Part shown: positions 1 through 44,267 of the stretch, in pieces | Layout of the letters: each line of letters opens with the position of its first letter | Numbering within the stretch: the first letter of the stretch is position 1 | Assembly: GCF_003018115.1 (NCBI RefSeq) | Contig: NZ_CP027457.1 | Reading direction: 5' to 3' (one strand) | DNA length: 64,000 bases | Origin: Escherichia coli | Lineage (GTDB): Bacteria > Pseudomonadota > Gammaproteobacteria > Enterobacterales > Enterobacteriaceae | Position numbers and translations under genes: made by a program | Notes under the pieces: model-generated | Told to the model about the DNA's origin: nothing | Database searches by the model: none | Seen by the model: the letters and a program-made list of their open reading frames with translations, nothing else

Positions 1-857
1 TGGTTCACAACGGTATTGAATACGGCGATATGCAGCTGATTGCTGAAGCCTATTCTCTGCTTAAAGGTGGCCTGAATCTTTCCAACGAAGAACTGGCACA
101 GACCTTTACCGAATGGAATAACGGTGAACTGAGCAGCTACCTGATCGACATCACCAAAGATATCTTCACCAAAAAAGATGAAGACGGTAACTACCTGGTT
201 GATGTGATTCTGGATGAAGCAGCAAACAAAGGTACGGGCAAATGGACCAGCCAGAGTGCGCTGGATCTCGGCGAACCGCTGTCGCTGATTACCGAGTCTG
301 TGTTTGCACGTTATATCTCTTCTCTGAAAGATCAGCGCGTTGCCGCGTCTAAAGTTCTCACTGGCCCGAAAGCGCAGCCAGCAGGCGATAAGGCTGAGTT
401 CATCGAAAAAGTTCGTCGTGCGCTGTATCTGGGCAAAATCGTTTCTTACGCCCAGGGCTTCTCTCAGCTACGCGCAGCGTCTGAAGAGTACAACTGGGAT
501 CTGAACTATGGCGAAATCGCGAAGATTTTCCGTGCTGGCTGCATCATCCGTGCGCAGTTCCTGCAGAAAATCACCGATGCCTATGCCGAAAATCCGCAAA
601 TCGCTAACCTGCTGCTGGCTCCGTACTTTAAGCAAATTGCCGATGACTACCAGCAGGCGCTGCGTGATGTCGTTGCTTATGCGGTACAGAACGGTATCCC
701 GGTTCCGACCTTCTCTGCGGCAGTTGCCTATTATGACAGCTACCGTTCCGCTGTTCTGCCTGCGAACCTGATCCAGGCACAACGTGACTATTTCGGTGCG
801 CATACTTATAAGCGCATTGATAAAGAAGGTGTGTTCCATACCGAATGGCTGGATTAA
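1..857 (+). CDS. gnd: 6-phosphogluconate dehydrogenase (decarboxylating), C-terminal part; 5' end lies outside the window
   Basis: Open frame runs from the window edge ([21 protein letters not shown]...) to the stop at 855-857; translation recognised as Gnd C-terminal region. Confidence 0.93.
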
Positions 858-883
858 TCTGATTTAAATCAATTAATCAATGC

Positions 884-914
884 AAGGCCCGGAGGAACCC
901 TCCGGGCTTTTTTA
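884..914 (+). terminator. Intrinsic terminator downstream of gnd
   Basis: GC-rich inverted repeat gcccggagg...cctccgggc followed by a T-run. Confidence 0.7.
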
Positions 915-1105
915 TTATACAAAGCGGCAGGTTATGGCCTTTTTTTATAATTTATGGTTAAAAAAGCGATATAATACAGAGTCGCACAGCAGGATCGCTG
1001 CCTTGACAGTTCATCCGCATCGGCGTTAAAAATCCCGCAGTAGATGAAGATGTGGTGGTGGATTAATGACCACTCTAAATGTTTAACCGGAAGAAGTCAG
1101 AGCTA

Positions 1106-2272
1106 ATGAAAATAACAATTTCAGGAACAGGTTATGTTGGTCTTTCAAATGGTATTCTGATTGCGCAAAATCACGAAGTAGTTGCATTGGATATCGTTCA
1201 GGCCAAAGTTGACATGCTTAACAAGAAGCAGTCACCGATTGTTGATAAGGAGATTGAAGAGTATCTGGCGACTAAAGATCTCAATTTCCGCGCTACGACA
1301 GATAAGTATGACGCGTATAAAAATGCCGATTACGTTATTATTGCCACGCCTACCGATTATGACCCGAAAACAAATTATTTTAATACCTCAAGCGTGGAAG
1401 CGGTCATCCGTGATGTGACAGAAATTAATCCCAACGCGGTAATGGTGATTAAATCTACAATTCCGGTAGGTTTCACCAAATCAATTAAAGAACGTCTGGG
1501 TATCGATAACCTTATTTTCTCTCCGGAATTTCTCCGTGAAGGTAAAGCCCTTTACGATAATCTCCATCCTTCACGTATTGTCATTGGTGAGCGTTCAGAA
1601 CGCGCAGAACGTTTTGCTGCGTTGTTACAGGAAGGAGCGATTAAGCAAAATATCCCGACCCTGTTTACCGACTCCACTGAAGCAGAAGCGATTAAACTTT
1701 TTGCAAACACCTACCTGGCGATGCGCGTGGCGTACTTTAACGAACTGGATAGCTACGCAGAAAGTTTAGGTCTGAATTCCCGTCAAATAATCGAAGGCGT
1801 TTGTCTCGACCCACGAATTGGCAACCATTACAACAATCCGTCGTTTGGTTATGGTGGTTATTGTCTGCCGAAAGATACCAAGCAGTTACTGGCGAACTAC
1901 CAGTCTGTGCCGAATAACCTGATTTCGGCAATTGTCGATGCTAACCGCACGCGTAAAGACTTTATTGCCGATGCCATTTTGTCACGCAAACCGCAAGTGG
2001 TGGGTATTTATCGTCTGATTATGAAGAGCGGGTCAGATAACTTCCGTGCGTCTTCCATTCAGGGGATTATGAAACGTATCAAGGCGAAAGGCGTTGAAGT
2101 GATCATATACGAGCCGGTGATGAAAGAAGACTCATTCTTCAACTCTCGCCTGGAACGAGATCTCGCCACCTTCAAACAACAAGCCGACGTCATTATTTCC
2201 AACCGTATGGCAGAAGAGCTTAAGGATGTGGCAGACAAAGTCTACACCCGCGATCTCTTTGGCAGTGACTAA
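1106..2272 (+). CDS. ugd: UDP-glucose 6-dehydrogenase
   Basis: ORF 1079..2272; start placed at ATG 1106 ([16 protein letters not shown]..., N-terminal Rossmann GxGxxG). About 388 aa. Confidence 0.93.
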
Positions 2273-2418
2273 CATCCTGTTATCAGGGCGATTTTCGCCC
2301 TGATTCTCTTATGTTCCCTTTGTAATAATTCATTCTTTTTATCATTTATCCTATAGCATTCATGGCGATTATCGCTAAACTATGGCGACTTAAAATTATT
2401 TCGTCCGTTAGGGTAATG

Positions 2419-3399
2419 ATGAGAGTAGAAAATAATAATGTTTCTGGGCAAAACCATGACCCGGAACAGATTGATTTGATTGATTTACTGGTGCAGTTGT
2501 GGCGCGGCAAGATGACTATCATCATTTCTGTCATTGTGGCTATTGCCCTGGCTATAGGGTATCTGGCCGTTGCCAAAGAAAAGTGGACTTCCACAGCTAT
2601 TGTTACTCAACCTGATGTGGGGCAAATCGCTGGTTATACCAACGCGATGAATGTGATTTACGGTCCGGCTGTACCGAAAGTCTCCGACATTCAGGCTTCA
2701 CTTATTGGACGTTACAGCACTGCATTCTCAGCATTAGCGGAAACGCTGGATAACCAGGATGAAGCAGAAAAGCTGACCATTGAGCCTACCGTCAAAAATC
2801 AGTCATTACCTTTAGCGGTGTCTTATGTTGGTGAAACACCTGAAGGTGCGCAGAAGCAGCTGGCGAAGTATATCCAGCAAGTTGACGACCAGGTAAATGT
2901 AGAGCTGGAAAAAGACTTGAAAGACAATATCGCGCTGCGTATGAAAAACTTGCAGGACTCTTTAAGAACTCAGGAAGTAGTCGCGCAAGAGCAGAAAGAT
3001 CTGCGTATCCGTCAGATTCAGGAAGCGTTGCAGTATGCGAATCAGGCGCAGGTGACAAAACCGCAAATTCAACAGACTGGCGAAGATATCACGCAAGATA
3101 CGTTGTTCCTTTTGGGGAGCGAAGCGCTGGAGTCGATGATTAAGCATGAGGCGACCCGTCCGTTGGTGTTCTCACCAAACTACTATCAGACTCGTCAAAA
3201 CCTGCTGGATATCGAAAGCTTAAAAGTTGATGATCTTGATATTCATGCTTACCGTTATGTGATGAAACCGACGTTACCTATTCGTCGCGATAGTCCGAAA
3301 AAGGCAATTACATTGATTCTGGCAGTGCTGCTGGGCGGCATGGTTGGCGCGGGGATTGTGCTGGGGCGTAATGCTCTACGCAATTACAACGCGAAGTAA
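2419..3399 (+). CDS. wzzB: O-antigen chain-length determinant (polysaccharide co-polymerase)
   Basis: ORF 2362..3399; start placed at MRVENNNVSGQ... (ATG 2419), 326 aa, two transmembrane ends flanking a periplasmic coiled-coil region. Confidence 0.9.
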   Translation: MRVENNNVSGQNHDPEQIDLIDLLVQLWRGKMTIIISVIVAIALAIGYLAVAKEKWTSTAIVTQPDVGQIAGYTNAMNVIYGPAVPKVSDIQASLIGRYSTAFSALAETLDNQDEAEKLTIEPTVKNQSLPLAVSYVGETPEGAQKQLAKYIQQVDDQVNVELEKDLKDNIALRMKNLQDSLRTQEVVAQEQKDLRIRQIQEALQYANQAQVTKPQIQQTGEDITQDTLFLLGSEALESMIKHEATRPLVFSPNYYQTRQNLLDIESLKVDDLDIHAYRYVMKPTLPIRRDSPKKAITLILAVLLGGMVGAGIVLGRNALRNYNAK

Positions 3400-3414
3400 T
3401 CTTTTCGGTTTTAA

Positions 3415-3454
3415 AGAAAAAGGGCAGGGTGGTGACACCTTGCCCGTTTTTTTT
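3415..3454. terminator. Bidirectional intrinsic terminator between convergent wzzB and hisIE
   Basis: Hairpin gggcagggtggtgacaccttgccc flanked by an A-run upstream and a T-run downstream. Confidence 0.75.
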
Positions 3455-3495
3455 GCCGGATGCGACAACAACATCGCATCCGCTTACCCCGCAAC

Positions 3496-4100
3496 TCACT
3501 GATGCCGTTTACGCAGGTTCTCAATCACCGTCGTTAAATCCAGATCCTGATCCTGCAACAACACCAGCAGGTGATACATCAAGTCAGATGCCTCGTTGGT
3601 CAGCTCAAAGCGGTCATGTACCGTTGCTGCCAGCGCAGTTTCCACCCCTTCTTCCCCCACTTTCTGCGCAATGCGCTTGGTGCCGCTGGCATACAGTTTG
3701 GCGGTATAGGAGGTTTCCGGGTCGGCAGATTTGCGCTCGGCGAGCAGTTGTTCCAGTTGATACAGGAACAGCCACTGGTGAGCGGTGTTGCCGAAGCAGC
3801 TGCTGGTGCCTTTGTGGCAGGTCGGGCCGATGGGATTCGCCAGCACTAATAAAGTGTCGTTGTCGCAGTCCGGCGCAATACTCACTACGTTGAGGAAATT
3901 GCCCGACGTTTCGCCTTTGGTCCACAGTCGCTGTTTAGTGCGCGAGAAGAAGGTGACTTTGCCGCTTTCGATGGTTTTGTCTAAGGCTTCCGGGTTCATA
4001 TAGCCCAGCATTAACACTTCGCCGGATACAGCGTGTTGCACAATCACCGGCATCAGTCCGTCGGTTTTTTCCCAGTCCAGTTCGCGACGTTGTTGTTCTG

Positions 4101-4107
<7 letters not shown>
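3496..4107 (-). CDS. hisI: Bifunctional phosphoribosyl-AMP cyclohydrolase / phosphoribosyl-ATP pyrophosphatase
   Basis: 203-aa ORF, recognised HisIE sequence, last gene of the his operon. Confidence 0.95.
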
Positions 4108-6185
<2,078 letters not shown>

Positions 6186-6186
<1 letters not shown>

Positions 6187-7252
6187 TACAGCACTCCTTT
6201 CGACGAGGGCAGGGTGTCGCCTTCCACGCGGATGGCCTGGCGCAGGGTGCGACCAAAGGCTTTGAACAGGCTCTCTACACGGTGGTGATCGTTTTTACCT
6301 TTGGTTTTCAGGTGTAGCGTCACGCCCATGGTGTAAGAGAGCGAACGGAAGAAGTGCTCGATCATTTCAGTGCTGAGATCGCCCACGCGCTGGTAGGTAA
6401 ATTCAGCTTTATATTCCAGGTGCGGGCGACCAGAGATATCCAGTGCACAGCGGGCAAGGCATTCGTCCATCGGCAGCACAAAACCAAAGCGGCAAATACC
6501 GCGTTTGTCGCCAAGAGCAATTTTTAATGCTTCGCCCAGCGCCAGGCCGGTATCTTCGACGGTGTGGTGATCGTCGATATAGAGGTCGCCTTTAACGTTG
6601 ATTTCCATCCGGAAACCGCCGTGGGTGGCGATCTGATCCAGCATGTGATCAAAGAATCCAACGCCGGTATTAATCTTGCTGCCACCTTCACGATCCAGCC
6701 ACACCTGGACGTCAATTTGCGTCTCTTTGGTGTTGCGCACTACATGGGCGTAACGGTCTCGTTTAGTGAGTTGCTCGCCAATCATTGGCCAGTTCAGGGT
6801 TTCGCGGTCGTAGCGTAAACCATTAATACCCATGTTTTCAGCCAGTTGAATATCGGTCGCGCGATCGCCAATCACATAACTGTTGGCGCGATCCATCGCT
6901 TGCTCAGCGAGATAACGCTCCACCAGTTTTACTTTCGGCTTACGGCAGTCGCACTCATCGGCGGGCAGGTGCGGACAAATCAGCACTTCATCAAACTGCA
7001 CGCCTTGTGAGGTGAAGATCTGCATCATCAGGTTGTGTGGGCCATCGAAATCCGCCTGCGGGAAACTTTGTGTTCCCAGACCATCCTGATTAGTGATCAT
7101 CACCGGCTTGTAGCCCGCTTTTTGCAGCTTCAGCAGCTCCGGGATCACGCCAGGTTCAAAGGCGAGTTTGTCAAAACGGTCCACCTGAAAATCACTCGGC
7201 GGTTCGCTAATCAGGGTTCCATCGCGATCGATAAAAAGATACTTCTGACTCA

Positions 7253-7253
<1 letters not shown>
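6186..7253 (-). CDS. hisB: Bifunctional histidinol-phosphatase / imidazoleglycerol-phosphate dehydratase
   Basis: ORF 6186..7256; ATG start at 7253 ([14 protein letters not shown]...), 355 aa. Confidence 0.95.
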
Positions 7254-9624
<2,371 letters not shown>

Positions 9625-9629
9625 GGCGA

Positions 9630-10529
9630 TCACTCCATCATTTTCTCAATCGGCAGGACCAGGATTGAACTGGCTCCCAGCGCTTTCAGTTTTTCCATCG
9701 TTTCCCAGAACAGGGTTTCGCTACTCACCATGTGCATCGCTACGCGCTGTTGATCACCTGCCAGCGGCAGAATAGTTGGGCGTTCGGCACCTGGCAGCAG
9801 GGCGATGACTTCATCCAGACGTTCAGTCGGTGCGTGCATCATGATGTATTTTGATTCGCGCGCCTGGATCACGCCCTGAATACGGGTCAGCAGCTTGTCG
9901 ATCAGTTGCTGTTTAGATTCTTCCATTTCGCCATCGCGCTGGATCAGGCAGGCTTTCGAGCGGTAGATAACTTCGACTTCGCGCAGGCCGTTAGCTTCCA
10001 GCGTGGCACCGGTGGAAACCAGATCGCAAATCGCATCCGCCAGTCCGGCGCGCGGGGCGACTTCAACAGAACCGTTCAGTAAGCAGGATTTAAAAGAGAT
10101 GCCTTTCTGGTCGAGATAACGCTTGAGCAGGTGAGGATAAGAGGTGGCGATACGTTTACCGTTTAAGGAGAGCGGACCGTCCCAGGCTTCATCAACCGGC
10201 GTTGCCAGCGAAAGGCGGCAGCCGCCGAAATCCAGTCGACGCAGGGTAAAGTAGCGCGGATCTTCACCCTGGGCTCGGCGGTTAAGCAGCTCTTCTTCCA
10301 GCACGTTTTCGCCGATAATCCCAAGGTCTACCACGCCGTCCATTACCAGACCGGGAATGTCGTCGTCACGCACGCGCAGAATATCAATCGGCATGTTTTC
10401 TGCCATCGCGATCAGGCGCTGGGTGTGAAGATTGATTTTAATGCCACAGCGCGCCAGCAATTCGCGTGAGTCATCACTTAAACGGCCGGATTTCTGCATA
10501 GCTATGCGTAAACGAGTGTTGTCTGTCAT
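9630..10529 (-). CDS. hisG: ATP phosphoribosyltransferase
   Basis: ORF 9630..10568; start at ATG 10529 ([21 protein letters not shown]...), 299 aa. Confidence 0.95.
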
Positions 10530-10575
10530 TTTCTTATTCCTCTTTAAACCTGTCTGAACCGTTATCAACCGCGCA

Positions 10576-10611
10576 ATAAAAAAGCCCCCGGAAGGTGATC
10601 TTCCGGGGGCT
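10576..10611 (-). terminator. his operon attenuator (leader terminator hairpin plus U-run)
   Basis: Inverted repeat agcccccggaag/cttccgggggct followed on the minus strand by a T-run, between hisL and hisG. Confidence 0.85.
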
Positions 10612-10674
10612 TTCTCATGCGTTCATGCACCACTGGAAGATCTGAATGTCTTCCAGCACACATCGCCTGAAAGA

Positions 10675-10725
10675 CTAGTCAGGATGATGGTGATGATGGT
10701 GGTGTTTAAATTGAACGCGTGTCAT
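10675..10725 (-). CDS. hisL: his operon leader peptide (MTRVQFKHHHHHHHPD)
   Basis: Minus-strand 16-codon ORF with seven consecutive His codons directly upstream of the attenuator. Confidence 0.93.
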   Translation of the reverse strand: MTRVQFKHHHHHHHPD

Positions 10726-10975
10726 AAAAGTCTCTGTGAATGTTTATTCAACTGATGTCTTTTAACCTAAACCACTTTCACGTTAGAAAGCAAGGGCTTT
10801 TTTATATATTTTATGGCGATGGATTTGTTTAATGAATGAGCGGGGAAAGGAGGGGGCTAAGAGGAGTGTCCCCTAACCTGACGGCACCCAAAATAGCGAA
10901 ACCTGGATTTTTCGTCTCACTGACAATGTCTTGATCTACAGACTAATTAATAAATAGTTAATTAACGCCTATCAT

Positions 10976-10993
10976 TGTACAATGAACTGTACA
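10976..10993 (+). promoter_or_regulatory. Probable YefM-YoeB autoregulatory operator (TGTACA-N6-TGTACA)
   Basis: Two TGTACA half-sites 6 bp apart, immediately upstream of the yefM RBS and start. Confidence 0.6.
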
Positions 10994-11008
10994 AAAGAGG
11001 AGATTGAA

Positions 11009-11260
11009 ATGCGTACAATTAGCTACAGCGAAGCGCGCCAGAATTTGTCGGCAACAATGATGAAAGCCGTTGAAGATCATGCCCCGATCCTTATTACTCG
11101 TCAGAATGGAGAGGCTTGTGTTCTGATGTCACTCGAAGAATACAACTCGCTGGAAGAGACGGCTTATCTACTGCGCTCCCCCGCTAACGCCCGGAGATTG
11201 ATGGACTCAATCGATAGCCTGAAATCAGGCAAAGGAACGGAAAAGGACATTATTGAGTGA
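11009..11260 (+). CDS. yefM: Antitoxin YefM (Phd/YefM family)
   Basis: ORF 10982..11260; start at [21 protein letters not shown]... (83 aa). Confidence 0.93.
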
Positions 11261-11511
11261 AACTAATCTGGTCTGAGGAGTCATGGGATGATTATCTGTA
11301 CTGGCAGGAAACAGATAAGCGAATTGTTAAAAAGATCATTGAACTTATCAAAGATACCCGCAGAACACCATTTGAAGGTAAGGGGAAGCCAGAACCCCTG
11401 AAGCATAATTTGTCAGGCTTCTGGTCCCGACGCATTACAGAGGAGCACCGTCTGGTATACGCGGTTACCGACGATTCACTGCTCATTGCAGCATGTCGTT
11501 ATCATTATTGA
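11257..11511 (+). CDS. yoeB: Toxin YoeB (RelE-fold ribosome-dependent mRNA interferase)
   Basis: 84-aa [25 protein letters not shown]... overlapping the yefM stop by 4 nt. Confidence 0.93.
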
Positions 11512-11593
11512 ACAGATTCATTCATAGAATGAATTGTCAGTTTTGATACGCTAGCGTAGCCTTATAGATCTAAGGTGTATCAGGAGATAACGG

Positions 11594-12418
11594 ATGAAAA
11601 AGGTCGCAATTGTCGGGTTAGGGTGGTTAGGCATGCCGCTGGCGATGTCACTTTCAGCGCGAGGCTGGCAAGTCACCGGGAGTAAAACCACACAAGATGG
11701 TGTCGAAGCGGCCCGAATGAGTGGCATTGATAGCTATCTGCTTCGCATGGAGCCTGAGTTAGTTTGCGATTCTGACGATCTGGATGCCCTGATGGATGCC
11801 GATGCGCTGGTCATTACGCTTCCGGCACGTCGTAGCGGCCCCGGCGATGAGTTCTATTTACAAGCGGTACAAGAGTTAGTGGATAGCGCGCTGGCCCATC
11901 GTATTCCCCGAATTATTTTTACCAGCTCGACGTCTGTCTATGGCGACGCGCAAGGCACGGTCAAAGAAACTACCCCGCGTAATCCGGTAACCAACAGTGG
12001 ACGAGTATTAGAAGAACTCGAAGACTGGCTGCACAATTTACCTGGTACTTCGGTCGATATTCTGCGTCTTGCGGGTCTTGTCGGACCGGGACGTCATCCC
12101 GGACGCTTCTTTGCCGGAAAAACCGCGCCTGATGGTGAACATGGTGTTAATTTAGTCCATTTAGAAGATGTTATTGGCGCTATCACTCTGTTGTTACAGG
12201 CACCTAAAGGCGGACACATCTATAATATATGTGCGCCAGCTCACCCTGCGCGTAATGTTTTCTATCCGCAGATGGCCCGTTTACTGGGGCTGGAGCCTCC
12301 GCAGTTCAGAAATAGTCTGGACAGCGGCAAAGGTAAGATTATTGATGGCAGTCGGATTTGTAATGAACTGGGATTTGAATACCAGTATCCCGATCCGCTG
12401 GTAATGCCGCTGGAGTAA
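11594..12418 (+). CDS. yeeZ: NAD(P)-binding Rossmann-fold protein (epimerase/dehydratase-like)
   Basis: 274-aa ORF MKKVAIVGLGWLGMPLA... with N-terminal GxGxxG. Confidence 0.85.
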   Translation: MKKVAIVGLGWLGMPLAMSLSARGWQVTGSKTTQDGVEAARMSGIDSYLLRMEPELVCDSDDLDALMDADALVITLPARRSGPGDEFYLQAVQELVDSALAHRIPRIIFTSSTSVYGDAQGTVKETTPRNPVTNSGRVLEELEDWLHNLPGTSVDILRLAGLVGPGRHPGRFFAGKTAPDGEHGVNLVHLEDVIGAITLLLQAPKGGHIYNICAPAHPARNVFYPQMARLLGLEPPQFRNSLDSGKGKIIDGSRICNELGFEYQYPDPLVMPLE

Positions 12419-12463
12419 ACGACCACGCCAGCAGGACGCCGCATGCACTGCAAGGGGGCGTGT

Positions 12464-13393
12464 ATGAAACCACTGCTGGATGTGTTGATGATCCTCGATG
12501 CCTTAGAAAAAGAAGGCAGTTTTGCGGCGGCGTCGGCCAAACTCTATAAGACGCCGTCCGCTCTGAGTTACACCGTTCACAAGCTGGAAAGCGACCTTAA
12601 TATTCAATTGCTTGATCGTAGCGGTCACCGCGCTAAATTCACCCGTACCGGAAAAATGTTATTAGAGAAAGGGCGGGAAGTTCTGCATACCGTGCGAGAA
12701 CTGGAAAAGCAGGCGATCAAACTGCATGAAGGCTGGGAAAACGAGCTGGTGATTGGCGTGGACGACACGTTTCCTTTTTCTCTGCTTGCGCCACTGATTG
12801 AAGCTTTTTATCAACATCATAGCGTGACGCGCCTGAAGTTTATCAATGGCGTACTCGGTGGTTCCTGGGATGCCCTGACTCAGGGGCGAGCGGATATTAT
12901 TGTTGGCGCGATGCATGAGCCACCATCTTCCAGTGAGTTTGGTTTCTCGCGGTTGGGCGATCTGGAACAAGTCTTTGCGGTCGCGCCTCATCATCCGCTA
13001 GCCCAGGAAGAAGAGCCGTTAAACCGTCGTATCATTAAGCGATATCGGGCGATTGTGGTGGGAGACACTGCGCAGGCAGGCGCTTCTACGGCCTCACAAC
13101 TTCTCGACGAACAAGAAGCCATTACCGTTTTCGATTTTAAAACCAAGCTGGAGCTGCAAATTAGCGGCCTCGGCTGCGGCTATTTACCCCGTTATCTGGC
13201 GCAACGTTTTCTCGATAGTGGCGCGTTAATCGAGAAGAAAGTGGTCGCCCAAACTCTCTTTGAACCCGTCTGGATTGGCTGGAATGAACAGACCGCAGGG
13301 CTTGCCAGCGGCTGGTGGCGGGATGAAATTTTAGCAAATAGTGCGATCGCCGGTGTTTATGCAAAATCTGATGACGGAAAATCAGCCATTTAA
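12464..13393 (+). CDS. yeeY: LysR-family transcriptional regulator
   Basis: ORF 12443..13393; start chosen at MKPLLDVLMILDALEKEGSF... (HTH N-terminus), about 309 aa. Confidence 0.85.
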   Translation: MKPLLDVLMILDALEKEGSFAAASAKLYKTPSALSYTVHKLESDLNIQLLDRSGHRAKFTRTGKMLLEKGREVLHTVRELEKQAIKLHEGWENELVIGVDDTFPFSLLAPLIEAFYQHHSVTRLKFINGVLGGSWDALTQGRADIIVGAMHEPPSSSEFGFSRLGDLEQVFAVAPHHPLAQEEEPLNRRIIKRYRAIVVGDTAQAGASTASQLLDEQEAITVFDFKTKLELQISGLGCGYLPRYLAQRFLDSGALIEKKVVAQTLFEPVWIGWNEQTAGLASGWWRDEILANSAIAGVYAKSDDGKSAI

Positions 13394-13659
13394 AGAAAAA
13401 TTATTATGACAAGCCTCTCATTCTCTTGTCATTTCCCCCCCATTTAGGCACAATGCGCCGCTGTCAAAAAATGACTAAAAACCGACGTTTCATCAGCGTC
13501 GGTTATTTTTTGCTTCAAACCAATCATTCATACCAAGAGGCCGGGCTTCGTACCGGATAGATATTTACTAAAAATCGACAGTTGTTGTCGCTGAGGAATC
13601 CAAAAAAATGGGGCAATTTTTTGCTTACGCGACGGTTATCACCGTAAAGGAGAATGACC

Positions 13660-15018
13660 ATGTCGCATAACGTTACTCCAAACACCTCTCGCGTGGAATT
13701 GCGTAAAACGCTTACGTTAGTTCCGGTTGTAATGATGGGTCTTGCCTATATGCAGCCGATGACGCTGTTTGATACTTTTGGTATCGTTTCAGGCCTCACG
13801 GATGGTCATGTGCCGACAGCCTATGCGTTCGCATTGATTGCGATCCTGTTTACGGCTCTGAGCTACGGGAAGCTGGTTCGCCGCTATCCTTCTGCTGGCT
13901 CTGCATACACTTACGCCCAGAAATCCATTAGCCCGACTGTCGGCTTTATGGTGGGTTGGTCTTCTCTGCTCGACTATCTGTTCGCGCCGATGATCAACAT
14001 TCTGCTGGCGAAAATCTATTTTGAAGCTCTGGTGCCTTCCATCCCATCGTGGATGTTTGTGGTGGCGCTGGTGGCCTTTATGACCGCCTTTAACCTGCGT
14101 AGTCTGAAATCCGTAGCGAACTTCAACACTGTAATCGTCGTGTTGCAGGTAGTGCTGATCGCGGTGATTCTGGGCATGGTTGTTTATGGCGTATTTGAAG
14201 GTGAAGGCGCTGGTACGCTGGCGAGCACTCGTCCGTTCTGGTCTGGCGATGCGCATGTTATCCCGATGATTACCGGGGCGACAATCCTGTGCTTCTCCTT
14301 TACCGGCTTTGACGGCATCAGCAACCTGTCGGAAGAAACCAAAGATGCAGAGCGCGTTATCCCGCGTGCGATTTTCCTGACCGCGCTGATTGGCGGCATG
14401 ATCTTCATCTTTGCAACTTACTTCCTGCAGCTGTACTTCCCGGATATCTCTCGCTTTAAAGATCCGGATGCGTCACAGCCTGAAATCATGCTGTATGTTG
14501 CGGGTAAAGCGTTCCAGGTTGGCGCGCTGATCTTCTCCACCATTACCGTACTGGCGTCTGGTATGGCGGCGCACGCAGGCGTAGCGCGTCTGATGTACGT
14601 AATGGGTCGTGACGGCGTATTCCCGAAAAGCTTCTTCGGTTATGTACACCCGAAATGGCGTACTCCGGCGATGAACATCATCCTGGTTGGCGCGATTGCC
14701 CTGCTGGCAATCAACTTCGACCTGGTAATGGCTACAGCGCTGATTAACTTTGGTGCGTTGGTGGCGTTCACCTTCGTTAACCTGTCGGTCATCTCGCAGT
14801 TCTGGATCCGTGAGAAGCGTAATAAGACGCTGAAAGATCACTTCCAGTATCTGTTCCTGCCGATGTGTGGTGCGCTGACTGTTGGTGCGCTGTGGGTTAA
14901 CCTGGAAGAAAGCTCAATGGTTCTGGGTCTGATCTGGGCTGCTATCGGTCTGATTTACCTGGCTTGCGTCACCAAGAGCTTCCGTAACCCGGTTCCGCAG
15001 TACGAAGACGTAGCATAA
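13660..15018 (+). CDS. plaP: Putrescine importer (APC-family amino acid/polyamine permease)
   Basis: ORF 13654..15018; start at [14 protein letters not shown]..., about 452 aa, multi-TM permease; AAGGAG RBS upstream. Confidence 0.88.
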
Positions 15019-15036
15019 TCATCTTTTCTAATAATT

Positions 15037-15074
15037 AACCGGAGTCGAATGAACATTTGGCTCCGGTTTTTTTA
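15037..15074 (+). terminator. Intrinsic terminator downstream of plaP
   Basis: Hairpin aaccggagtcgaatgaacatttggctccggtt followed by a T-run. Confidence 0.75.
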
Positions 15075-15196
15075 TTCTTTTTTATCGAAATCCTCATTAA
15101 TAACCATTTGTTCTAATTTAGAGAATTTGGTTATTGGTCTGCATTCCACCAGTCATGAATAATTTCCCCATTAACATTCATCTGGTTAATTAATTT

Positions 15197-16255
15197 ATGT
15201 TTTCAATGATATTAAGCGGGCTAATTTGTGGTGCTCTGCTGGGATTTGTCATGCAGCGTGGGCGTTTTTGCCTGACTGGTGGTTTTCGCGATATGTATAT
15301 CGCGAAAAATAATCGCATGTTTTACGCCTTGCTGATTGCAATTTCGATACAAAGCGTGGGGGTTTTTGCGTTAATTCAGGCAGGCCTACTGACTTACGAA
15401 GCCGGGGCGTTCCCGTGGCTTGGTACTGTTATAGGTGGGTATATCTTCGGGCTGGGAATTGTTCTGGCGGGTGGATGTGCCACCGGGACCTGGTATCGCG
15501 CGGGTGAGGGATTGATCGGCAGTTGGATCGCGCTTTTCACTTATATGGTGATGAGTGCGGTGATGCGTTCTCCACACGCCAGTGGTTTAAATCAAACCTT
15601 GCAGCACTACAGTACTGAACATAACTCTATTGCTGAGACTTTTAATTTGTCTGTGTGGCCGTTGGTTGCCGTATTGCTGGTGATAACGCTCTGGGTGGTG
15701 ATGAAAGAGTTGAAGAAGCCAAAACTCAAAGTCGCGACCTTACCGCCGCGCCGAACTGGGATCGCTCATATTCTGTTTGAAAAACGCTGGCATCCCTTTG
15801 TCACTGCTGTACTCATCGGTTTGATTGCGCTTTTAGCCTGGCCCCTGAGTGAAGCAACCGGACGTATGTTTGGGTTAGGCATCACTTCCCCAACGGCCAA
15901 TATTCTGCAATTTCTGGTCGCGGGTGACGTGAAATACATTAACTGGGGCGTTTTCCTGGTGTTAGGGATCTTCGTGGGGTCATTTATTGCAGCCAAAGCG
16001 AGCCGTGAGTTCCGCGTTCGCGCAGCTGATGCACAAACAACAGTACGTAGCGGGTTAGGTGGTGTACTGATGGGCTTCGGTGCCAGTATTGCAGGTGGTT
16101 GCTCTATCGGTAATGGACTGGTTATGACTGCAATGATGACCTGGCAGGGCTGGATTGGCCTTGTATTTATGATTCTCGGAGTCTGGACTGCGTCCTGGCT
16201 TGTGTATGTTCGACCGCAGCGTAAGGCGCGACTGGCAACTGCTGCGGCAAATTAA
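15197..16255 (+). CDS. yeeE: Thiosulfate transporter (YeeE/YedE family inner-membrane protein)
   Basis: 352-aa polytopic membrane ORF with conserved Cys motifs (GRFCLTGG..., GGCSIGNG...). Confidence 0.88.
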   Translation: MFSMILSGLICGALLGFVMQRGRFCLTGGFRDMYIAKNNRMFYALLIAISIQSVGVFALIQAGLLTYEAGAFPWLGTVIGGYIFGLGIVLAGGCATGTWYRAGEGLIGSWIALFTYMVMSAVMRSPHASGLNQTLQHYSTEHNSIAETFNLSVWPLVAVLLVITLWVVMKELKKPKLKVATLPPRRTGIAHILFEKRWHPFVTAVLIGLIALLAWPLSEATGRMFGLGITSPTANILQFLVAGDVKYINWGVFLVLGIFVGSFIAAKASREFRVRAADAQTTVRSGLGGVLMGFGASIAGGCSIGNGLVMTAMMTWQGWIGLVFMILGVWTASWLVYVRPQRKARLATAAAN

Positions 16256-16268
16256 GTAAGGTGTAAAG

Positions 16269-16496
16269 ATGGCGATTAAAAAGCTGGATGTGGTGACGCA
16301 GGTCTGTCCGTTTCCACTCATAGAAGCAAAAGCAGCACTGGCAGAAATGGCCAGCGGCGATGAGTTGGTAATTGAGTTTGATTGCACCCAGGCAACAGAA
16401 GCAATCCCACAATGGGCGGCAGAAGAAGGACATGCCATCACCGATTATCAGCAGATTGGCGATGCTGCGTGGAGCATCACCGTTCAAAAAGCCTGA
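16269..16496 (+). CDS. yeeD: TusA-like sulfurtransferase
   Basis: 75-aa ORF with the TusA CPxP motif (VCPFPLIEAK), directly downstream of yeeE. Confidence 0.9.
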   Translation: MAIKKLDVVTQVCPFPLIEAKAALAEMASGDELVIEFDCTQATEAIPQWAAEEGHAITDYQQIGDAAWSITVQKA

Positions 16497-16504
16497 CCCA
16501 ACAT

Positions 16505-16538
16505 TGTCCTCCGCCGTATCAGCGGCGGAGGCTTCAAA
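16505..16538. terminator. Stem-loop between convergent yeeD and sbcB
   Basis: Inverted repeat cctccgccg/cggcggagg; flanking T-runs are weak. Confidence 0.45.
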
Positions 16539-17966
16539 CTAGACGATCTCTTCCGCGTACTGCCAAAGCGCTTTTAACAGCGCCACTTTTTCTTTATCGT
16601 CGGCATACTGCTGCGCCAGCATCTGAATCTCTTCTGCATAGCCTTGTAAAAACTCGGGTGTGAATACCTGGCGGCGGTGCTCCAGCCAACGTTGCTGCTC
16701 GGCATAATCCAGCGTCCCTGGGAAGTTGCGTGCCCGATAATTGAACAACAGCTTTTCAATCCGTTTATCAACAAAAGTGATATCCAGTGCCGGTAAATTA
16801 CGCGGCTCGGTTTCCAGCACAATTTTCATTGCTGCACGATCGGCGTCACTGAAAAAGCCGTTATAAAGCTGTGTATCCACGTTATCTGAAGGCGTAAACG
16901 GTTCGGCTTCCGCGAATATCGCCACCACTTTTTCGCGCACTTGCGGATTTTCACGCAGAATTTTCAGGTTATCGAGGCAATGCTGACGATTAATTCCCAG
17001 TCGGTCGGCATCTTCCGGGCGTAGCGTATTCGCCTGGGCCAGCACCGGACATTTATTGATATGCACCAGCTTAACCGGAACGGCGGCGTTATCGCCAAGA
17101 TCGGTTTTTGCGGTATATAAACGCTCGCGTAATGTGTCGCTATCCAGTTCCAGTAATGGCGAAATGTCTCCTGCCAAATCCACCATAATTACGGCATTGC
17201 GATTTTCAGGATGCCACGCCAGCGGTGCCACCCAGCTGGTATTGCCGCGCCATGCCCCAAACATTCCGGAAACGTGCACCAGGGGTTTCATCTGCGGAAC
17301 ATCAATCAACGCCATCAGTTTGTGTTTATTACGATGGGTAAAGAGATATTCAAACAGACGTGGCTGACGCGTTTTTACCAGTTTCGCCATCGCAATAGTG
17401 GCGTACACATCAGCCATCGCATCGTGGGCGTTGCTATGTTCAATACCATTCGCTTTGGTTAAATGCTCAAGGCGAAAGCTCGGTAGACCGTCATCATTTT
17501 CAGGCCAGTTTATTCCTTCCGGGCGCAGGGCATAACAGGCACGCATAACATCCAGTAAATCCCAGCGCGAGTTATCATGCTGCCAGCTCCAGGCGTAAGG
17601 ATCGTAGAAATTACGATAAAAAATGTTGCGTGTGACTTCGTCGTCGAAACGCACATTGTTGTAGCCCAGAATACAGGTCTTCGGTACGGTAAAAAGCGAG
17701 TGAATACGGGCGGCAAACGCGGCTTCGTTTTCTCCTTTCGCCCGTGCTTCCTGCGGGGTAATACCGGTAATTAATACGGCTCCAGGCTGGGGTAAATAGT
17801 CATCCGCAGGCTTGCAGTAAAAGACTTCGGGTTCGCCGATGACATTGAATTCGCTATCGGTGCGAATGGCTGCGAACTGTGCAGGGCGATCTAACGCGGG
17901 GTGCGTGCCAAAGGTTTCGTAATCGTGAAACAAAAAGGTAGATTGTTGCTTACCGTCATTCATCAT
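16539..17966 (-). CDS. sbcB: Exodeoxyribonuclease I
   Basis: ORF 16539..18038; start at MMNDGKQQSTFLFHDYETFGTHPALDRPAQFAA... (475 aa). Confidence 0.93.
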   Translation of the reverse strand: MMNDGKQQSTFLFHDYETFGTHPALDRPAQFAAIRTDSEFNVIGEPEVFYCKPADDYLPQPGAVLITGITPQEARAKGENEAAFAARIHSLFTVPKTCILGYNNVRFDDEVTRNIFYRNFYDPYAWSWQHDNSRWDLLDVMRACYALRPEGINWPENDDGLPSFRLEHLTKANGIEHSNAHDAMADVYATIAMAKLVKTRQPRLFEYLFTHRNKHKLMALIDVPQMKPLVHVSGMFGAWRGNTSWVAPLAWHPENRNAVIMVDLAGDISPLLELDSDTLRERLYTAKTDLGDNAAVPVKLVHINKCPVLAQANTLRPEDADRLGINRQHCLDNLKILRENPQVREKVVAIFAEAEPFTPSDNVDTQLYNGFFSDADRAAMKIVLETEPRNLPALDITFVDKRIEKLLFNYRARNFPGTLDYAEQQRWLEHRRQVFTPEFLQGYAEEIQMLAQQYADDKEKVALLKALWQYAEEIV

Positions 17967-18168
17967 TAGGTTAAATCCGTTATTTCTACTGTCTGCCAGA
18001 GTATCAAATATCACCGTGCTAATCAGCTTTAGCGCCACAATTTGGCAGCGAGTGGCAACAGATCATGTCAGATAAAAATGAGAGGGTAGTCACATTTTCT
18101 TGCACTTTATTCCAGCCAGTTCATAAGTATTTCCGTAAAAAGAACAGCTATTTGAAACTCCTGAGGGT

Positions 18169-19341
18169 TTGCTGTTGAAACGCCGTCTTATTATTGCTGC
18201 TTCTTTGTTCGTTTTTAACTTATCGTCTGGTTTTGCGGCGGAAAACATTCCTTTTTCACCTCAGCCTCCTGAGATTCATGCCGGATCCTGGGTATTGATG
18301 GATTACACCACCGGTCAGATCCTCACCGCGGGTAATGAGCATCAACAGCGCAATCCCGCCAGCCTGACAAAGCTGATGACGGGTTATGTCGTGGATCGCG
18401 CTATCGATAGTCATCGCATTACGCCAGACGATATTGTCACCGTGGGGCGTGATGCGTGGGCGAAAGATAATCCGGTGTTTGTCGGTTCTTCACTGATGTT
18501 TTTGAAAGAGGGCGATCGCGTATCGGTACGTGATTTAAGCCGTGGTTTAATTGTGGATTCCGGAAATGACGCTTGTGTTGCACTGGCTGACTATATTGCC
18601 GGTGGGCAACGGCAGTTTGTTGAAATGATGAACAACTATGCCGAGAAGCTGCATCTCAAGGATACGCATTTTGAAACAGTGCATGGCCTGGATGCGCCAG
18701 GTCAGCATAGCTCGGCTTATGATTTAGCTGTGCTTTCTCGCGCTATCATCCACGGCGAGCCCGAGTTTTATCATATGTACAGTGAGAAAAGCCTCACCTG
18801 GAACGGTATCACCCAGCAAAACCGTAACGGGTTATTGTGGGATAAAACCATGAATATTGACGGCCTGAAAACGGGTCATACTTCTGGTGCCGGGTTTAAT
18901 CTCATTGCTTCGGCTGTAGATGGGCAGCGTCGTCTCATTGCAGTGGTAATGGGTGCTGACAGCGCAAAAGGTCGTGAGGAAGAGGCAAGAAAATTACTGC
19001 GTTGGGGGCAACAAAACTTTACTACGGTGCAAATTTTGCACCGTGGGAAAAAGGTCGGTACGGAACGCATCTGGTATGGCGATAAAGAAAATATCGCCCT
19101 GGGAACAGAACAAGAGTTCTGGATGGTACTACCGAAAGCCGAAATTCCACATATCAAAGCCAAATATACCCTTGATGGTAAAGAGCTCACCGCGCCAATT
19201 AGCGCCCATCAGCGGGTAGGGGAAATTGAACTTTACGACCGTGATAAACAGGTGGCGCACTGGCCGCTGGTTACCCTGGAATCTGTCGGGGAAGGCAGCA
19301 TGTTTTCTCGCCTGAGTGATTATTTCCACCATAAGGCCTGA
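18169..19341 (+). CDS. dacD: D-alanyl-D-alanine carboxypeptidase (PBP6b)
   Basis: About 390-aa ORF with signal peptide and the SxxK motif (PASLTKLMT). Confidence 0.92.
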   Translation: MLLKRRLIIAASLFVFNLSSGFAAENIPFSPQPPEIHAGSWVLMDYTTGQILTAGNEHQQRNPASLTKLMTGYVVDRAIDSHRITPDDIVTVGRDAWAKDNPVFVGSSLMFLKEGDRVSVRDLSRGLIVDSGNDACVALADYIAGGQRQFVEMMNNYAEKLHLKDTHFETVHGLDAPGQHSSAYDLAVLSRAIIHGEPEFYHMYSEKSLTWNGITQQNRNGLLWDKTMNIDGLKTGHTSGAGFNLIASAVDGQRRLIAVVMGADSAKGREEEARKLLRWGQQNFTTVQILHRGKKVGTERIWYGDKENIALGTEQEFWMVLPKAEIPHIKAKYTLDGKELTAPISAHQRVGEIELYDRDKQVAHWPLVTLESVGEGSMFSRLSDYFHHKA

Positions 19342-19427
19342 CCTTTCTTTTGCAGCAGACTGGCAGGAGTGCGAGTCTGCTCGCATAATCAACACTCATT
19401 CCTTGTGGTTTTAATTTTGCAACTATA

Positions 19428-19443
19428 CTGTATATAAAAACAG
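19428..19443 (+). promoter_or_regulatory. LexA (SOS) box upstream of sbmC
   Basis: CTGTATATAAAAACAG matches the CTGT-N8-ACAG SOS box, 17 bp upstream of the sbmC ATG. Confidence 0.8.
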
Positions 19444-19459
19444 TATTAATGGAGGCGTC

Positions 19460-19933
19460 ATGAACTACGAGATTAAGCAGGAAGATAAACGTACCGTTGC
19501 AGGTTTCCATCTCGTTGGCCCGTGGGAACAGACGGTAAAGAAAGGCTTTGAGCAGTTGATGATGTGGGTAGATAGCAAAAATATTGTGCCGAAGGAGTGG
19601 GTTGCTGTCTATTACGACAATCCAGATGAAACACCCGCCGAAAAATTACGCTGCGACACCGTCGTGACGGTGCCGGGTTACTTTACGCTTCCCGAAAACA
19701 GTGAGGGCGTCATTCTGACAGAAATTTCAGGTGGTCAGTATGCGGTGGCGGTAGCTCGTGTAGTCGGTGATGATTTTGCTAAACCCTGGTATCAGTTCTT
19801 TAATAGCCTCTTGCAGGACAGTGCTTATGAAATGTTACCAAAGCCCTGCTTCGAGGTTTATTTGAACAATGGCGCGGAAGATGGGTACTGGGATATCGAA
19901 ATGTATGTTGCGGTGCAGCCAAAACATCACTAA
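19460..19933 (+). CDS. sbmC: DNA gyrase inhibitor (GyrI)
   Basis: 157-aa [28 protein letters not shown]... Confidence 0.92.
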
Positions 19934-20131
19934 TTCATCTCAGGGCGGTGTGTTAACGCGATGACCACTCTTTTTTTTGAAAGCGAAAAGAGTAAGATGC
20001 GCCTTTCAATTTTTTCGCTCCTGCCGGGAAATTACACTGTTCCCGGTTTGTCCGTCGGATATTTCAGAGGCGCCCCTTCTGGCCGACAGATGAGTTATGA
20101 GCGCTTTTAATCTTCATTACGGAGTTTCTGC

Positions 20132-21190
20132 GTGCGTGCCGATAAGTCATTAAGCCCGTTTGAAATCCGGGTATACCGCCATTACCGCATTGTGCATGGT
20201 ACTCGGGTCGCGCTGGCATTCCTGCTCACTTTTCTCATTATCCGCCTGTTTACTATCCCGGAAAGTACCTGGCCGCTGGTCACCATGGTGGTGATTATGG
20301 GGCCAATCTCGTTCTGGGGTAACGTTGTCCCTCGCGCCTTCGAACGTATTGGCGGTACGGTGTTGGGTTCGATTTTAGGTCTTATCGCTCTGCAACTGGA
20401 GTTAATCTCGTTACCGCTGATGTTAGTCTGGTGCGCGGCGGCTATGTTTCTTTGCGGTTGGCTGGCGCTGGGCAAGAAACCGTATCAAGGTTTATTGATT
20501 GGGGTGACGCTGGCAATTGTTGTGGGTTCCCCGACAGGTGAAATTGATACGGCGTTATGGCGAAGCGGCGATGTGATCCTCGGCTCTTTACTGGCAATGT
20601 TGTTTACCGGTATCTGGCCACAACGGGCGTTCATCCACTGGCGTATTCAACTGGCGAAAAGTCTGACCGAGTATAATCGGGTCTATCAATCTGCATTCTC
20701 ACCGAACTTACTCGAACGCCCACGTCTGGAAAGCCATCTACAAAAACTCTTGACCGATGCCGTGAAAATGCGTGGGCTGATTGCGCCCGCCAGCAAAGAA
20801 ACTCGTATTCCAAAATCGATATATGAAGGTATCCAGACCATTAACCGCAATCTGGTTTGTATGCTGGAGTTGCAAATCAATGCATACTGGGCCACGCGCC
20901 CCAGCCATTTCGTGTTATTGAACGCGCAAAAACTTCGTGATACCCAGCACATGATGCAGCAAATACTGCTGAGCCTTGTTCATGCGCTGTACGAAGGTAA
21001 TCCGCAGCCGGTTTTTGCCAATACGGAAAAATTGAACGATGCTGTGGAAGAGCTGCGTCAGTTGCTCAATAACCACCATGACCTGAAGGTTGTGGAAACA
21101 CCAATCTATGGTTATGTGTGGCTGAACATGGAAACGGCGCATCAGCTTGAGTTGCTATCGAATCTGATTTGCCGGGCCTTGCGCAAATAA
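20132..21190 (+). CDS. yeeA: Inner-membrane protein, FUSC/ArAE-like putative efflux family
   Basis: 352-aa ORF with N-terminal TM segments and a C-terminal soluble domain. Confidence 0.85.
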   Translation: MRADKSLSPFEIRVYRHYRIVHGTRVALAFLLTFLIIRLFTIPESTWPLVTMVVIMGPISFWGNVVPRAFERIGGTVLGSILGLIALQLELISLPLMLVWCAAAMFLCGWLALGKKPYQGLLIGVTLAIVVGSPTGEIDTALWRSGDVILGSLLAMLFTGIWPQRAFIHWRIQLAKSLTEYNRVYQSAFSPNLLERPRLESHLQKLLTDAVKMRGLIAPASKETRIPKSIYEGIQTINRNLVCMLELQINAYWATRPSHFVLLNAQKLRDTQHMMQQILLSLVHALYEGNPQPVFANTEKLNDAVEELRQLLNNHHDLKVVETPIYGYVWLNMETAHQLELLSNLICRALRK

Positions 21191-21361
21191 TTCCTGAACT
21201 TCAGAATCATCTTGCTGCTGCTTCGATTCAGCAAGGATAAAGGGTATGATAGTGAAAAGGGATAAAAGCATTGTCATCTGCGGCAGCTATGAGTAATGTT
21301 GGCCCTAACGAATAGCGGTTGCTTAAACGAATCCGACTCTCACATTATCAGGGGTATAAAA

Positions 21362-21691
21362 ATGGAAACTACCAAGCCTTCATTCCAGGACGTACTGGAA
21401 TTTGTTCGTCTGTTCCGTCGTAAGAACAAACTGCAACGTGAAATTCAGGACGTTGAGAAAAAGATCCGTGACAACCAGAAGCGCGTCCTGTTGCTGGACA
21501 ACCTGAGTGATTACATCAAGCCGGGGATGAGCGTTGAAGCAATCCAGGGCATCATCGCTAGCATGAAAGGTGACTATGAAGATCGCGTTGACGATTACAT
21601 CATCAAAAATGCCGAGCTCTCCAAAGAACGCCGCGATATCTCCAAAAAGCTGAAAGCTATGGGCGAAATGAAAAACGGCGAAGCGAAGTAA
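21362..21691 (+). CDS. yeeX: UPF0265/DUF496 family protein
   Basis: ORF 21296..21691; start at [18 protein letters not shown]... (109 aa). Confidence 0.88.
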
Positions 21692-21702
21692 TTCCTGTTT
21701 TA

Positions 21703-21732
21703 TTCAATGAGGGTTGCCCGGCAACCCTCATT
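21703..21732 (+). terminator. Stem-loop downstream of yeeX
   Basis: Inverted repeat gagggttgcccggcaaccctc; T-run is imperfect. Confidence 0.5.
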
Positions 21733-21791
21733 GCTCATTGATTCTTTTCTGTGTATCACAGTCATCATTCCCATCTGATAACCTATCGAAA

Positions 21792-21968
21792 TTAGCGACA
21801 GACATCTTCTGTATGAAGCAAGGCAAAAAGTTCTGCAACTCTATTGTTATTAACCGCACTGGTTACTAACACGTTGTGCGATCCAGCTTCCCGTAACCAA
21901 ACTTTCACCAAAGATATTTCTTCCATGCTGGCTAAATCTGCTTTGGTGACTACTCCAATGATCGGACG
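21792..21968 (-). pseudogene. Remnant of a EutP/PduV-family small GTPase gene (C-terminal about 58 codons only)
   Basis: Minus-strand frame RPIIGVVTKADLASMEEISLVKVWLREAGSHNVLVTSAVNNNRVAELFALLHTEDVCR*; resembles the C-terminus of EutP (RQIAVISKTDM...). No N-terminal P-loop region is present. Confidence 0.4.
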
Positions 21969-22149
21969 TTAACACGAGGAAGTCTGGCTATTCCACAATG
22001 CCATCTTCTTTCGTAATGGATTGAGAATGCTGGATTTTTAATTATATTACGCGCAGTATTAATCGTGTAAATGTTTTGCGGTCAGCAACGGTGGGGGATC
22101 CATTGTTCTGTTCAATGAATACCATCATACAATTGAATCAGGAGTCGGT

Positions 22150-22695
22150 ATGATGATTTTGGTGACGGGGGGCGCACGGAGCGGGAAGAGTCGCCACGCA
22201 GAGGCGCTTATTGGAGACTCTTCACAGGTTCTGTATATCGCCACCTCGCAAATCCTTGATGATGAGATGGCTGCACGGATAGAACATCATCGGCAAGGCC
22301 GCCCGGCGCACTGGCGCACGGTGGAGCGCTGGCAACATCTTGATGAATTAATTCATGCAGACATTAACCCGCATGAAGCTGTGTTGCTGGAATGCGTTAC
22401 CACAATGGTGACTAATCTGTTGTTTGATTATGGCGGAGATAAAGACCCTGATGAATGGGATTATCAGGCGATGGAACAGGCGATTAATGCTGAGATTCAG
22501 TCGTTGATTGCTGCCTGCCAACGTTGCCCCGCAAAGGTTGTATTAGTGACTAACGAAGTGGGAATGGGGATTGTGCCGGAGAGTCGTCTGGCACGTCATT
22601 TTCGTGATATTGCCGGGCGGGTAAATCAGCAGCTGGCCGCTGCGGCGAATGAAGTGTGGCTGGTGGTTTCGGGTATTGGAGTAAAAATCAAATGA
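22150..22695 (+). CDS. cobU: Adenosylcobinamide kinase / adenosylcobinamide-phosphate guanylyltransferase
   Basis: 181-aa ORF with P-loop GGARSGKS. Confidence 0.93.
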
Positions 22696-23435
22696 GTAAA
22701 TTATTTTGGGCGATGCTCTCTTTTATTACGCGTCTGCCTGTGCCGCGTCGCTGGTCCCAGGGACTGGATTTCGAGCATTATTCTCGCGGTATTATTACTT
22801 TTCCTTTAATTGGATTATTGCTTGGCGCGATTAGCGGGCTGGTTTTCATGGTGCTGCAGGCATGGTGTGGCGTACCACTGGCGGCACTGTTTAGCGTGCT
22901 TGTGCTGGCGCTGATGACCGGGGGATTCCACCTGGACGGCCTCGCCGATACCTGTGATGGCGTATTTTCTGCACGTAGCCGCGATCGCATGTTGGAAATC
23001 ATGCGTGATAGCCGTTTAGGCACCCACGGCGGTCTGGCATTGATTTTTGTTGTACTGGCAAAGATTCTGGTGTTAAGCGAGTTGGCTCTGCGTGGCGAAC
23101 CGATCCTTGCATCGCTGGCGGCAGCATGTGCGGTCAGCCGCGGGACTGCCGCATTATTGATGTATCGTCATCGTTATGCCCGGGAAGAAGGGCTTGGCAA
23201 TGTATTCATTGGCAAAATTGATGGGCGACAAACCTGCGTCACACTCGGCTTGGCCGCTATTTTTGCTGCCGTATTATTGCCGGGTATGCATGGTGTGGCT
23301 GCTATGGTGGTGACGATGGTGGCGATTTTCATCCTCGGTCAGCTTCTCAAACGTACGCTGGGCGGGCAAACCGGCGATACGCTGGGAGCTGCTATAGAGC
23401 TTGGTGAACTGGTCTTCCTGCTGGCACTGCTATAA
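22692..23435 (+). CDS. cobS: Adenosylcobinamide-GDP ribazoletransferase (cobalamin synthase)
   Basis: ORF 22656..23435; start at [18 protein letters not shown]... (247 aa); ATGA overlap with the cobU stop. Confidence 0.92.
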
Positions 23436-23446
23436 AGAGACGTGAC

Positions 23447-35895: not shown

Positions 35896-43878
<7,983 letters not shown>

Positions 43879-44191: not shown

Positions 44192-44267
44192 TGGCTCCTC
44201 TGACTGGACTCGAACCAGTGACATACGGATTAACAGTCCGCCGTTCTACCGACTGAACTACAGAGGA
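44192..44267 (-). tRNA. asnT: tRNA-Asn (GUU)
   Basis: 76-nt canonical tRNA-Asn; 5'-flank conserved with the copy at 25579-25654. Confidence 0.95.

Follow-up and report, generated by a model that had tools for sequence, protein, structure and literature searches.

What O-antigen genes lie beyond the gnd-ugd-wzzB group with which this Escherichia coli segment begins, and do they determine the serotype of the strain? The segment (the window, 64,000 nucleotides of contig NZ_CP027457.1) starts within gnd, and the initial annotation took gnd, ugd, and wzzB to bound the his-proximal side of an O-antigen cluster, in agreement with Iguchi et al. (2015, PMC4379981), who describe galF and gnd/ugd as enclosing the E. 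coli O clusters and wzz as lying immediately beyond. The window very probably opens on the standard E. coli gnd-ugd-wzzB segment between an O-antigen cluster and the his operon, and the cluster upstream, as seen in clonal relatives, is a 10-gene Wzx/Wzy cluster of the O20/O137 type. This is a textbook locus and is already known, although most O types can be tied to their 'serotype-determining' genes with more certainty than this one, given the statement that the galF-gnd genes are at odds with the published structure of O20 (Liu et al. 2020, PMC7685785).

Genes between gnd and the his operon

All four genes at the window start (gnd, ugd, wzzB, and hisIE) exceed the NCBIfam equivalog cutoffs, and because of the E values, chance is not an issue for their identities (Table 1); the three that the initial annotation had placed here are present, with gnd as a partial gene. 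Gnd catalyzes a step in the oxidative pentose-phosphate pathway, and nucleotides 3 to 857 code for its C-terminal 284 residues (185 to 468) and the stop codon. In the NCBIfam scan this fragment matches TIGR00873 with an E value of 4e-137 and 457.7 bits (cutoff, 426.7), spanning profile positions 181 to 466 of 467. The truncation is due to the window edge and not to mutation, because a clonal assembly (L012) places window nucleotide 1 at nucleotide 551 of a 1407-nucleotide gnd (L012 position 17693), and the gene is complete, coding for 468 aa, in the clonal assemblies described below.

Table 1. Features of the window start and of the upstream O-antigen locus; positions are those of the window unless prefixed by L012, a clonal assembly
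Feature	Position	Strand	Description
gnd, 3' fragment	1..857	+	NADP-dependent 6-phosphogluconate dehydrogenase; codons 185-468 plus stop, the 3' 61%
Terminator-like hairpin 3' of gnd	884..910	+	12-bp stem with 8 GC pairs, T run
ugd	1106..2272	+	UDP-glucose 6-dehydrogenase, 388 aa, intact; NF011631
Hairpin 3' of ugd	2282..2304	+	10-bp stem, weak T tail
wzzB	2419..3399	+	O-antigen chain-length determinant (polysaccharide co-polymerase class 1), 326 aa, intact; NF012015
Terminator-like hairpin 3' of wzzB	3422..3445	+	10-bp stem, then G and T8; in the 96-bp wzzB-hisIE gap
hisIE	3496..4107	-	Last his operon gene, locus boundary on the his side; NF002747, 309.7 bits
His leader	10576-10699	-	Start of the his operon; Rfam
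galF	L012 6817-7710		Located in the clonal assembly
ops, GGCGGTAG	L012 7996-8003		Sole copy in the 20.7-kb locus, 41 bp before the first cluster gene
O-antigen cluster	L012 8044-17106		10 genes, 9.1 kb, intact, between galF and gnd
O-cluster gene 1			HAD phosphatase, 123 aa; TIGR01689
O-cluster gene 2			529-aa protein without a family match
O-cluster gene 3			251 aa, annotated GT2; weak nucleotidyltransferase-like match only
O-cluster gene 4			wzy; Pfam O-antigen_lig, 3e-22
O-cluster gene 5			wzx; NF041503, 250.5 bits, under the cutoff of 300; RefSeq name from a 99.5%-identical cluster
O-cluster gene 6			GT61 glycosyltransferase
O-cluster gene 7			GT25 glycosyltransferase
O-cluster gene 8			GT4 glycosyltransferase
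O-cluster gene 9			pssD
O-cluster gene 10			pssE
gnd, complete	L012 17143-18549		Clonal assembly

Ugd, whose product is UDP-glucuronic acid, scores 826.5 bits against NF011631 (cutoff, 757) and covers the profile from 1 to 388 of 388; the mechanical open reading frame begins at 1079, and the gene start was taken as 1106. The protein contains an N-terminal NAD-binding motif, GTGYVG, at residue 7, the motif GGYCLPKD with the catalytic Cys253, and Tyr71, and an identical Ugd is present in 4752 collection blocks, adjoining many different O clusters. The enzymatic roles of Gnd and Ugd, as well as the chain-length control considered below, are those predicted from knowledge of the families.

The genes are closely spaced, with gaps of just 248 bp between gnd and ugd, 146 bp between ugd and wzzB, and 96 bp between wzzB and the convergently oriented hisIE, so there is no further coding between gnd and hisIE. 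Extra genes or insertion sequences (IS) between gnd and ugd occur in some complete genomes and in O101/O162 (PMC7685785), and the window has none. A hairpin follows each of gnd, ugd, and wzzB, suggesting that the three may form separate transcription units. A sigma-70 scan returned fewer sites than in shuffled sequences, with none upstream of gnd, ugd, or wzzB on the plus strand, and the Rfam search of positions 1 to 12000 found no structured RNAs beyond the His leader. The GC content is 44% in ugd, 47% in wzzB, and 55% in the his operon.

WzzB and its predicted control of chain length

WzzB is an oligomeric polysaccharide co-polymerase of the inner membrane; its periplasmic domain is large and is flanked by two transmembrane helices. 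The window protein matches NF012015 with 599.4 bits (cutoff, 267) over profile positions 1 to 325 of 325, whereas the models of the paralogues WzzE and FepE score only ∼130 bits on it. The raw open reading frame begins at 2362, and the profile match begins at its residue 20, 19 codons further in; the gene closes with its stop codon at 3399.

Hydrophobic segments are present near residues 23 to 54 and 295 to 318, at the two ends only (19-residue Kyte-Doolittle windows above 1.6 start at residues 23 to 36 and 295 to 300 and nowhere else), and the periplasmic domains of solved WzzB proteins align to residues 53 to 294. A proline motif, PTLPIRRDSPKKAITLILAVLLGGMVG (PTLPIRRDSPK-X11-GGMVG), is located at residues 284 to 310, before the second transmembrane segment; the motif that we take to mark the class is the proline-rich P-X2-P-X4-SPK-X11-GXXXG ahead of that segment. 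The full-length WzzB structure PDB 6rbg aligns with the window protein without gaps (1 to 326 on 1 to 326, E value of 1.5e-193, 92.6% identity), and the termini, the transmembrane segments, and the proline motif are alike in the two proteins; they differ by 24 substitutions, 23 of which are within residues 62 to 175, in the periplasmic domain.

In the Wzx/Wzy pathway, Wzz and Wzy together give the O chain its preferred (modal) length before ligation (PMC7685785). WzzB is relevant to the adjoining cluster because wzx and wzy are present there, and its membership of the family suggests that it is likely to control modal chain length in this strain.

O-antigen genes beyond the window start in clonal relatives

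The region upstream of gnd was examined in public assemblies found by their exact WzzB and Ugd proteins, among which there are five independent clonal assemblies (L001/L012, GCA_036586225.1; L004, GCA_049902415.1; L013; L014; and L015). L001 and L004 show 2 mismatches to the window in 12 to 13 kb (99.98% identity). For L013 to L015 the comparison was with L012, over 20.7 kb that take in window nucleotides 1 to 3064, and gave 99.97 to 99.98% identity. The O cluster is known from these near-identical relatives; the DNA upstream of gnd in the source strain itself lies outside the window. The exact WzzB occurs on 24 contigs, 23 of which share one neighborhood, and the remaining one, L002, contains this gene set with interruptions by runs of N.

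The gene order, read directly from all five clonal assemblies, is wcaJ, wzxC, wcaK, wcaL, wcaM, galF, ten O-antigen genes, gnd, ugd, and wzzB. An intact wzx/wzy cluster is thus located upstream of gnd in each of them, which bears out the expectation of the initial annotation that O-antigen genes lie directly beyond the window start; it had proposed inspecting the DNA upstream of gnd, and this inspection, done on the clonal relatives, did not encounter an upstream region lacking rfb/wb genes. The cluster ends 36 bp from the gnd start codon and has a GC content of 30.6%, compared with 50% for gnd and galF. The 529-aa product of its second gene has no match in a PDB sequence search.

The single ops match is weak on its own, as at least one match occurs in 25 of 100 shuffles, and the stretch of L012 around it is one that we recognized by eye and take to be the JUMPStart consensus. 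A Wzx/Wzy-dependent cluster, headed by this JUMPStart/ops element downstream of galF, adjoins gnd in this lineage, and WzzB, acting with the Wzy polymerase, would give its O chains their modal length.

The 8.3 kb upstream of gnd has matches in only 5 of the 5426 complete E. coli genomes, at 99.5 to 99.8% identity. The wzx and wzy genes of these genomes are labelled 'O20/O137 family' by NCBI, and one of the genomes is named O20:H12; the in silico O type of the lineage is thus the O20/O137 cluster type. O20 and O137 have been grouped together as Gp1 (Iguchi et al. 2015, PMC4379981), although their identity is contested (DebRoy et al. 2016, PMC4732683). All ten cluster genes are equal in length to those of the O20:H12 genome and are 98.9 to 100% identical to them, whereas the flanks are more divergent, at 94.7 to 96.9% identity from wcaK to galF and ∼96.3% in gnd and ugd. 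This cassette-like pattern is observed directly, and a near-identical cluster between flanks of 95 to 97% identity is the usual sign of cassette exchange, suggesting that the O cluster was exchanged as a unit with crossovers near galF and gnd. Codon differences between two lineages number 21 synonymous and 20 nonsynonymous within the cluster, against ratios of 45:5 for gnd and 41:2 for ugd; the evidence of constraint is weaker for the cluster, although these counts are small.

The O20 polysaccharide and comparison with known loci

The published chemistry of O20 raises the question of whether this cluster is the one that makes the O antigen. The O20 O unit is described as having a two-residue backbone in which ribofuranose is present and as containing neither GlcNAc nor GalNAc; according to the same study, the galF-gnd regions of O20, O57, and O60 are inconsistent with the respective structures, and functional clusters are expected elsewhere (Liu et al. 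2020, PMC7685785). E. coli O20ab is reported to have a cluster identical to Klebsiella rfb-O4 and to make the same polysaccharide (2024 JBC, PMC11231755).

These two reports, together with the relaxed ratio of synonymous to nonsynonymous differences in the cluster (21:20), speak for an alternative in which O serospecificity is set by a second cluster, for example of the Klebsiella O4-like ABC-transporter kind, with the galF-gnd cluster either silent or making another polymer, and with little substrate for WzzB. This is unlikely, as none of the ten genes is disrupted in the five clonal assemblies, their lengths agree with those in the O20:H12 genome, and the JUMPStart/ops element is intact as well. 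The gnd-his interval is a site of ABC-type O clusters, and an ABC-transporter cluster of the O8/O9 or Klebsiella style was considered for it; the interval contains only ugd and wzzB, with no extra genes in its short gaps. Nor does the annotation of strain 2824, which is collinear with the window, include an ABC-transporter polysaccharide cluster over the rest of the window. Moreover, the grouping of O20 with O137 is itself disputed (DebRoy et al. 2016), and the O20 label of this lineage is an in silico one only.

A related idea, speculative and rather doubtful, is that the product of the 'O20/O137' galF-gnd cluster may be a polysaccharide to which no chemical structure has ever been assigned, with the O20 structure of the literature attributed to the Klebsiella O4-like ABC-transporter cluster. 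The HAD phosphatase, the 529-aa protein, and the weakly nucleotidyltransferase-like protein could then constitute an undescribed split module for adding ribofuranose, and WzzB would regulate the length of that polymer.

It is highly improbable that the source strain is rough or, like K-12, carries a damaged cluster, with no functional serotype genes beyond the window start. Its upstream DNA lies outside the window, wzy, pssD, and the GT4 gene are frameshifted in the related assembly L017, and CP050207.1 (L002/L016) has gaps in the cluster. However, every indel of L017 involves a single base in a same-base run, as is typical of long-read errors, and these indels were rejected as cluster decay; L017 belongs to a different lineage, the CP050207.1 gaps are runs of N, and the cluster is intact in the five clonal assemblies.

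With the standard gnd-ugd-wzzB segment and its upstream Wzx/Wzy cluster as the preferred reading, the position of the window in the chromosome is fixed, running from the end of gnd through his, cobUST, and a yeeJ-like adhesin gene to dgcQ/yedP. The order gnd-ugd-wzzB-hisIE is widespread, with at least 80% of a 3.5-kb query covered in 4535 of the 5426 complete E. coli genomes and always annotated in this way, and the window resembles these RefSeq genomes in its genes and in their order, orientation, and spacing. It differs from them in identity, the best values being 97.3% for positions 1 to 3500, 98.0% for 3500 to 23500, and 99.6% for 44 to 64 kb, and the allele block of this lineage is missing from the set of 5426. 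In a comparison with one collinear genome, the identity is ∼95 to 97% across the his operon and climbs to 99 to 100% at the end of the window distant from gnd. High diversity is expected beside the recombination-prone O locus. The low best identities of 97.3% and 98.0% prompted consideration of an origin outside E. coli, in Shigella or a cryptic clade, and this was rejected, as the 99.6% identity of the 44- to 64-kb region indicates that the window is from E. coli and that its divergence is local to a block by the O locus.

The wider interest lies outside the window, as this cluster type is among the few for which the genes and a published O-antigen structure are unreconciled. Compared with the O20/O137 cluster Gp1 of Iguchi et al. 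(2015), whose tie to the O20 chemical structure is disputed, the cluster of the clonal relatives is located beyond the window start and has flanks that differ by 3 to 5% from those of the O20:H12 genome, whereas the cluster itself is alike, at 99.5 to 99.8% identity to those carrying the 'O20/O137 family' label.

Cassette-like identity pattern at the O-antigen locus

The O-antigen locus was compared gene by gene between L012 (GCA_036586225.1), a public assembly clonal with the window that extends upstream of it, and L011, an E. coli genome named O20:H12, over L012 positions 1798-20756, of which 17693-20756 correspond to window 1-3064 and the remainder lies outside the window. The ten genes of the O cluster, which is of the O20/O137 Wzx/Wzy type and lies between galF and gnd, share 98.9-100% identity with the O20:H12 genome, whereas identity is only 94.7-96.9% in the wca/galF flank and ∼96.3% in the gnd/ugd flank. 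Ten near-identical genes set between diverged flanks imply recombination junctions near galF and gnd, a sequence pattern suggestive of cassette-like exchange. For the part of the window adjoining the O locus (1-23500), none of 5426 complete E. coli genomes matches closely, the best identities being 97.3% and 98.0%; for the far end (44000-64000), the best identity to complete E. coli genomes is 99.6%.

The first three O-cluster genes are listed in the table, and searches of Pfam, NCBIfam, and PDB with the 529-aa product gave zero matches. HAD phosphatase domains serve as markers of ribofuranose-adding enzymes (PMC11127046), and on this basis the HAD phosphatase, 529-aa, and 251-aa proteins may constitute a split ribofuranose-adding module.

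Features of the O cluster and of window 34519-43953
Feature	Location	Strand	Remarks
HAD "capsule biosynthesis phosphatase," 123 aa	within L012 8044-10756		opens O cluster; TIGR01689; PDB 1xpj, 2e-56
529-aa protein	within L012 8044-10756		second O-cluster gene; no family match
251-aa protein	within L012 8044-10756		third O-cluster gene; weak nucleotidyltransferase-like match
Family-9 glycosyltransferase gene	window 34519-35634	+	apparently intact
Ig-like adhesin ORF, 2685 aa	window 35896-43953	-	adjoins family-9 glycosyltransferase gene

Sequence variation in wzy and wzzB

The L012 wzy gene contains a run of nine G residues (10867-10875), where L017, an assembly of a different lineage with the same O-cluster type, has eight. 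The L017 O cluster has five further single-base indels in short same-base runs, and these single-base differences may reflect either sequencing error or slippage. CP050207.1 (GCA_014216795.1), an assembly of the window's lineage, was ruled out as a reference for the locus because runs of N take up 5.8-8.3 kb of its O cluster and its his genes appear broken.

Compared with the solved WzzB structure (PDB 6rbg), 23 of the 24 amino acid differences in WzzB fall within codons 62-175 of the periplasmic domain (window 2602-2943), and toward its 3' end the gene is almost invariant. Just 3' of the wzzB terminator, a 9-bp inverted repeat recognized by eye only (CGGATGCGA/TCGCATCCG; window 3457-3482) looks like a REP-type palindrome.

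Comparison with E. coli strain 2824

The collinear genome of E. coli strain 2824 differs in carrying a 17.6-kb pocR-pduF-pdu (propanediol utilization) island between yeeA/tmaR and cobU, which is absent from the window at ∼21965. The glycosyltransferase and adhesin genes both have counterparts in strain 2824, whose annotations read GT9 protein and Ig-like domain protein, respectively. In the adhesin region at 38-40 kb of the window, identity to strain 2824 is just 93-95%.
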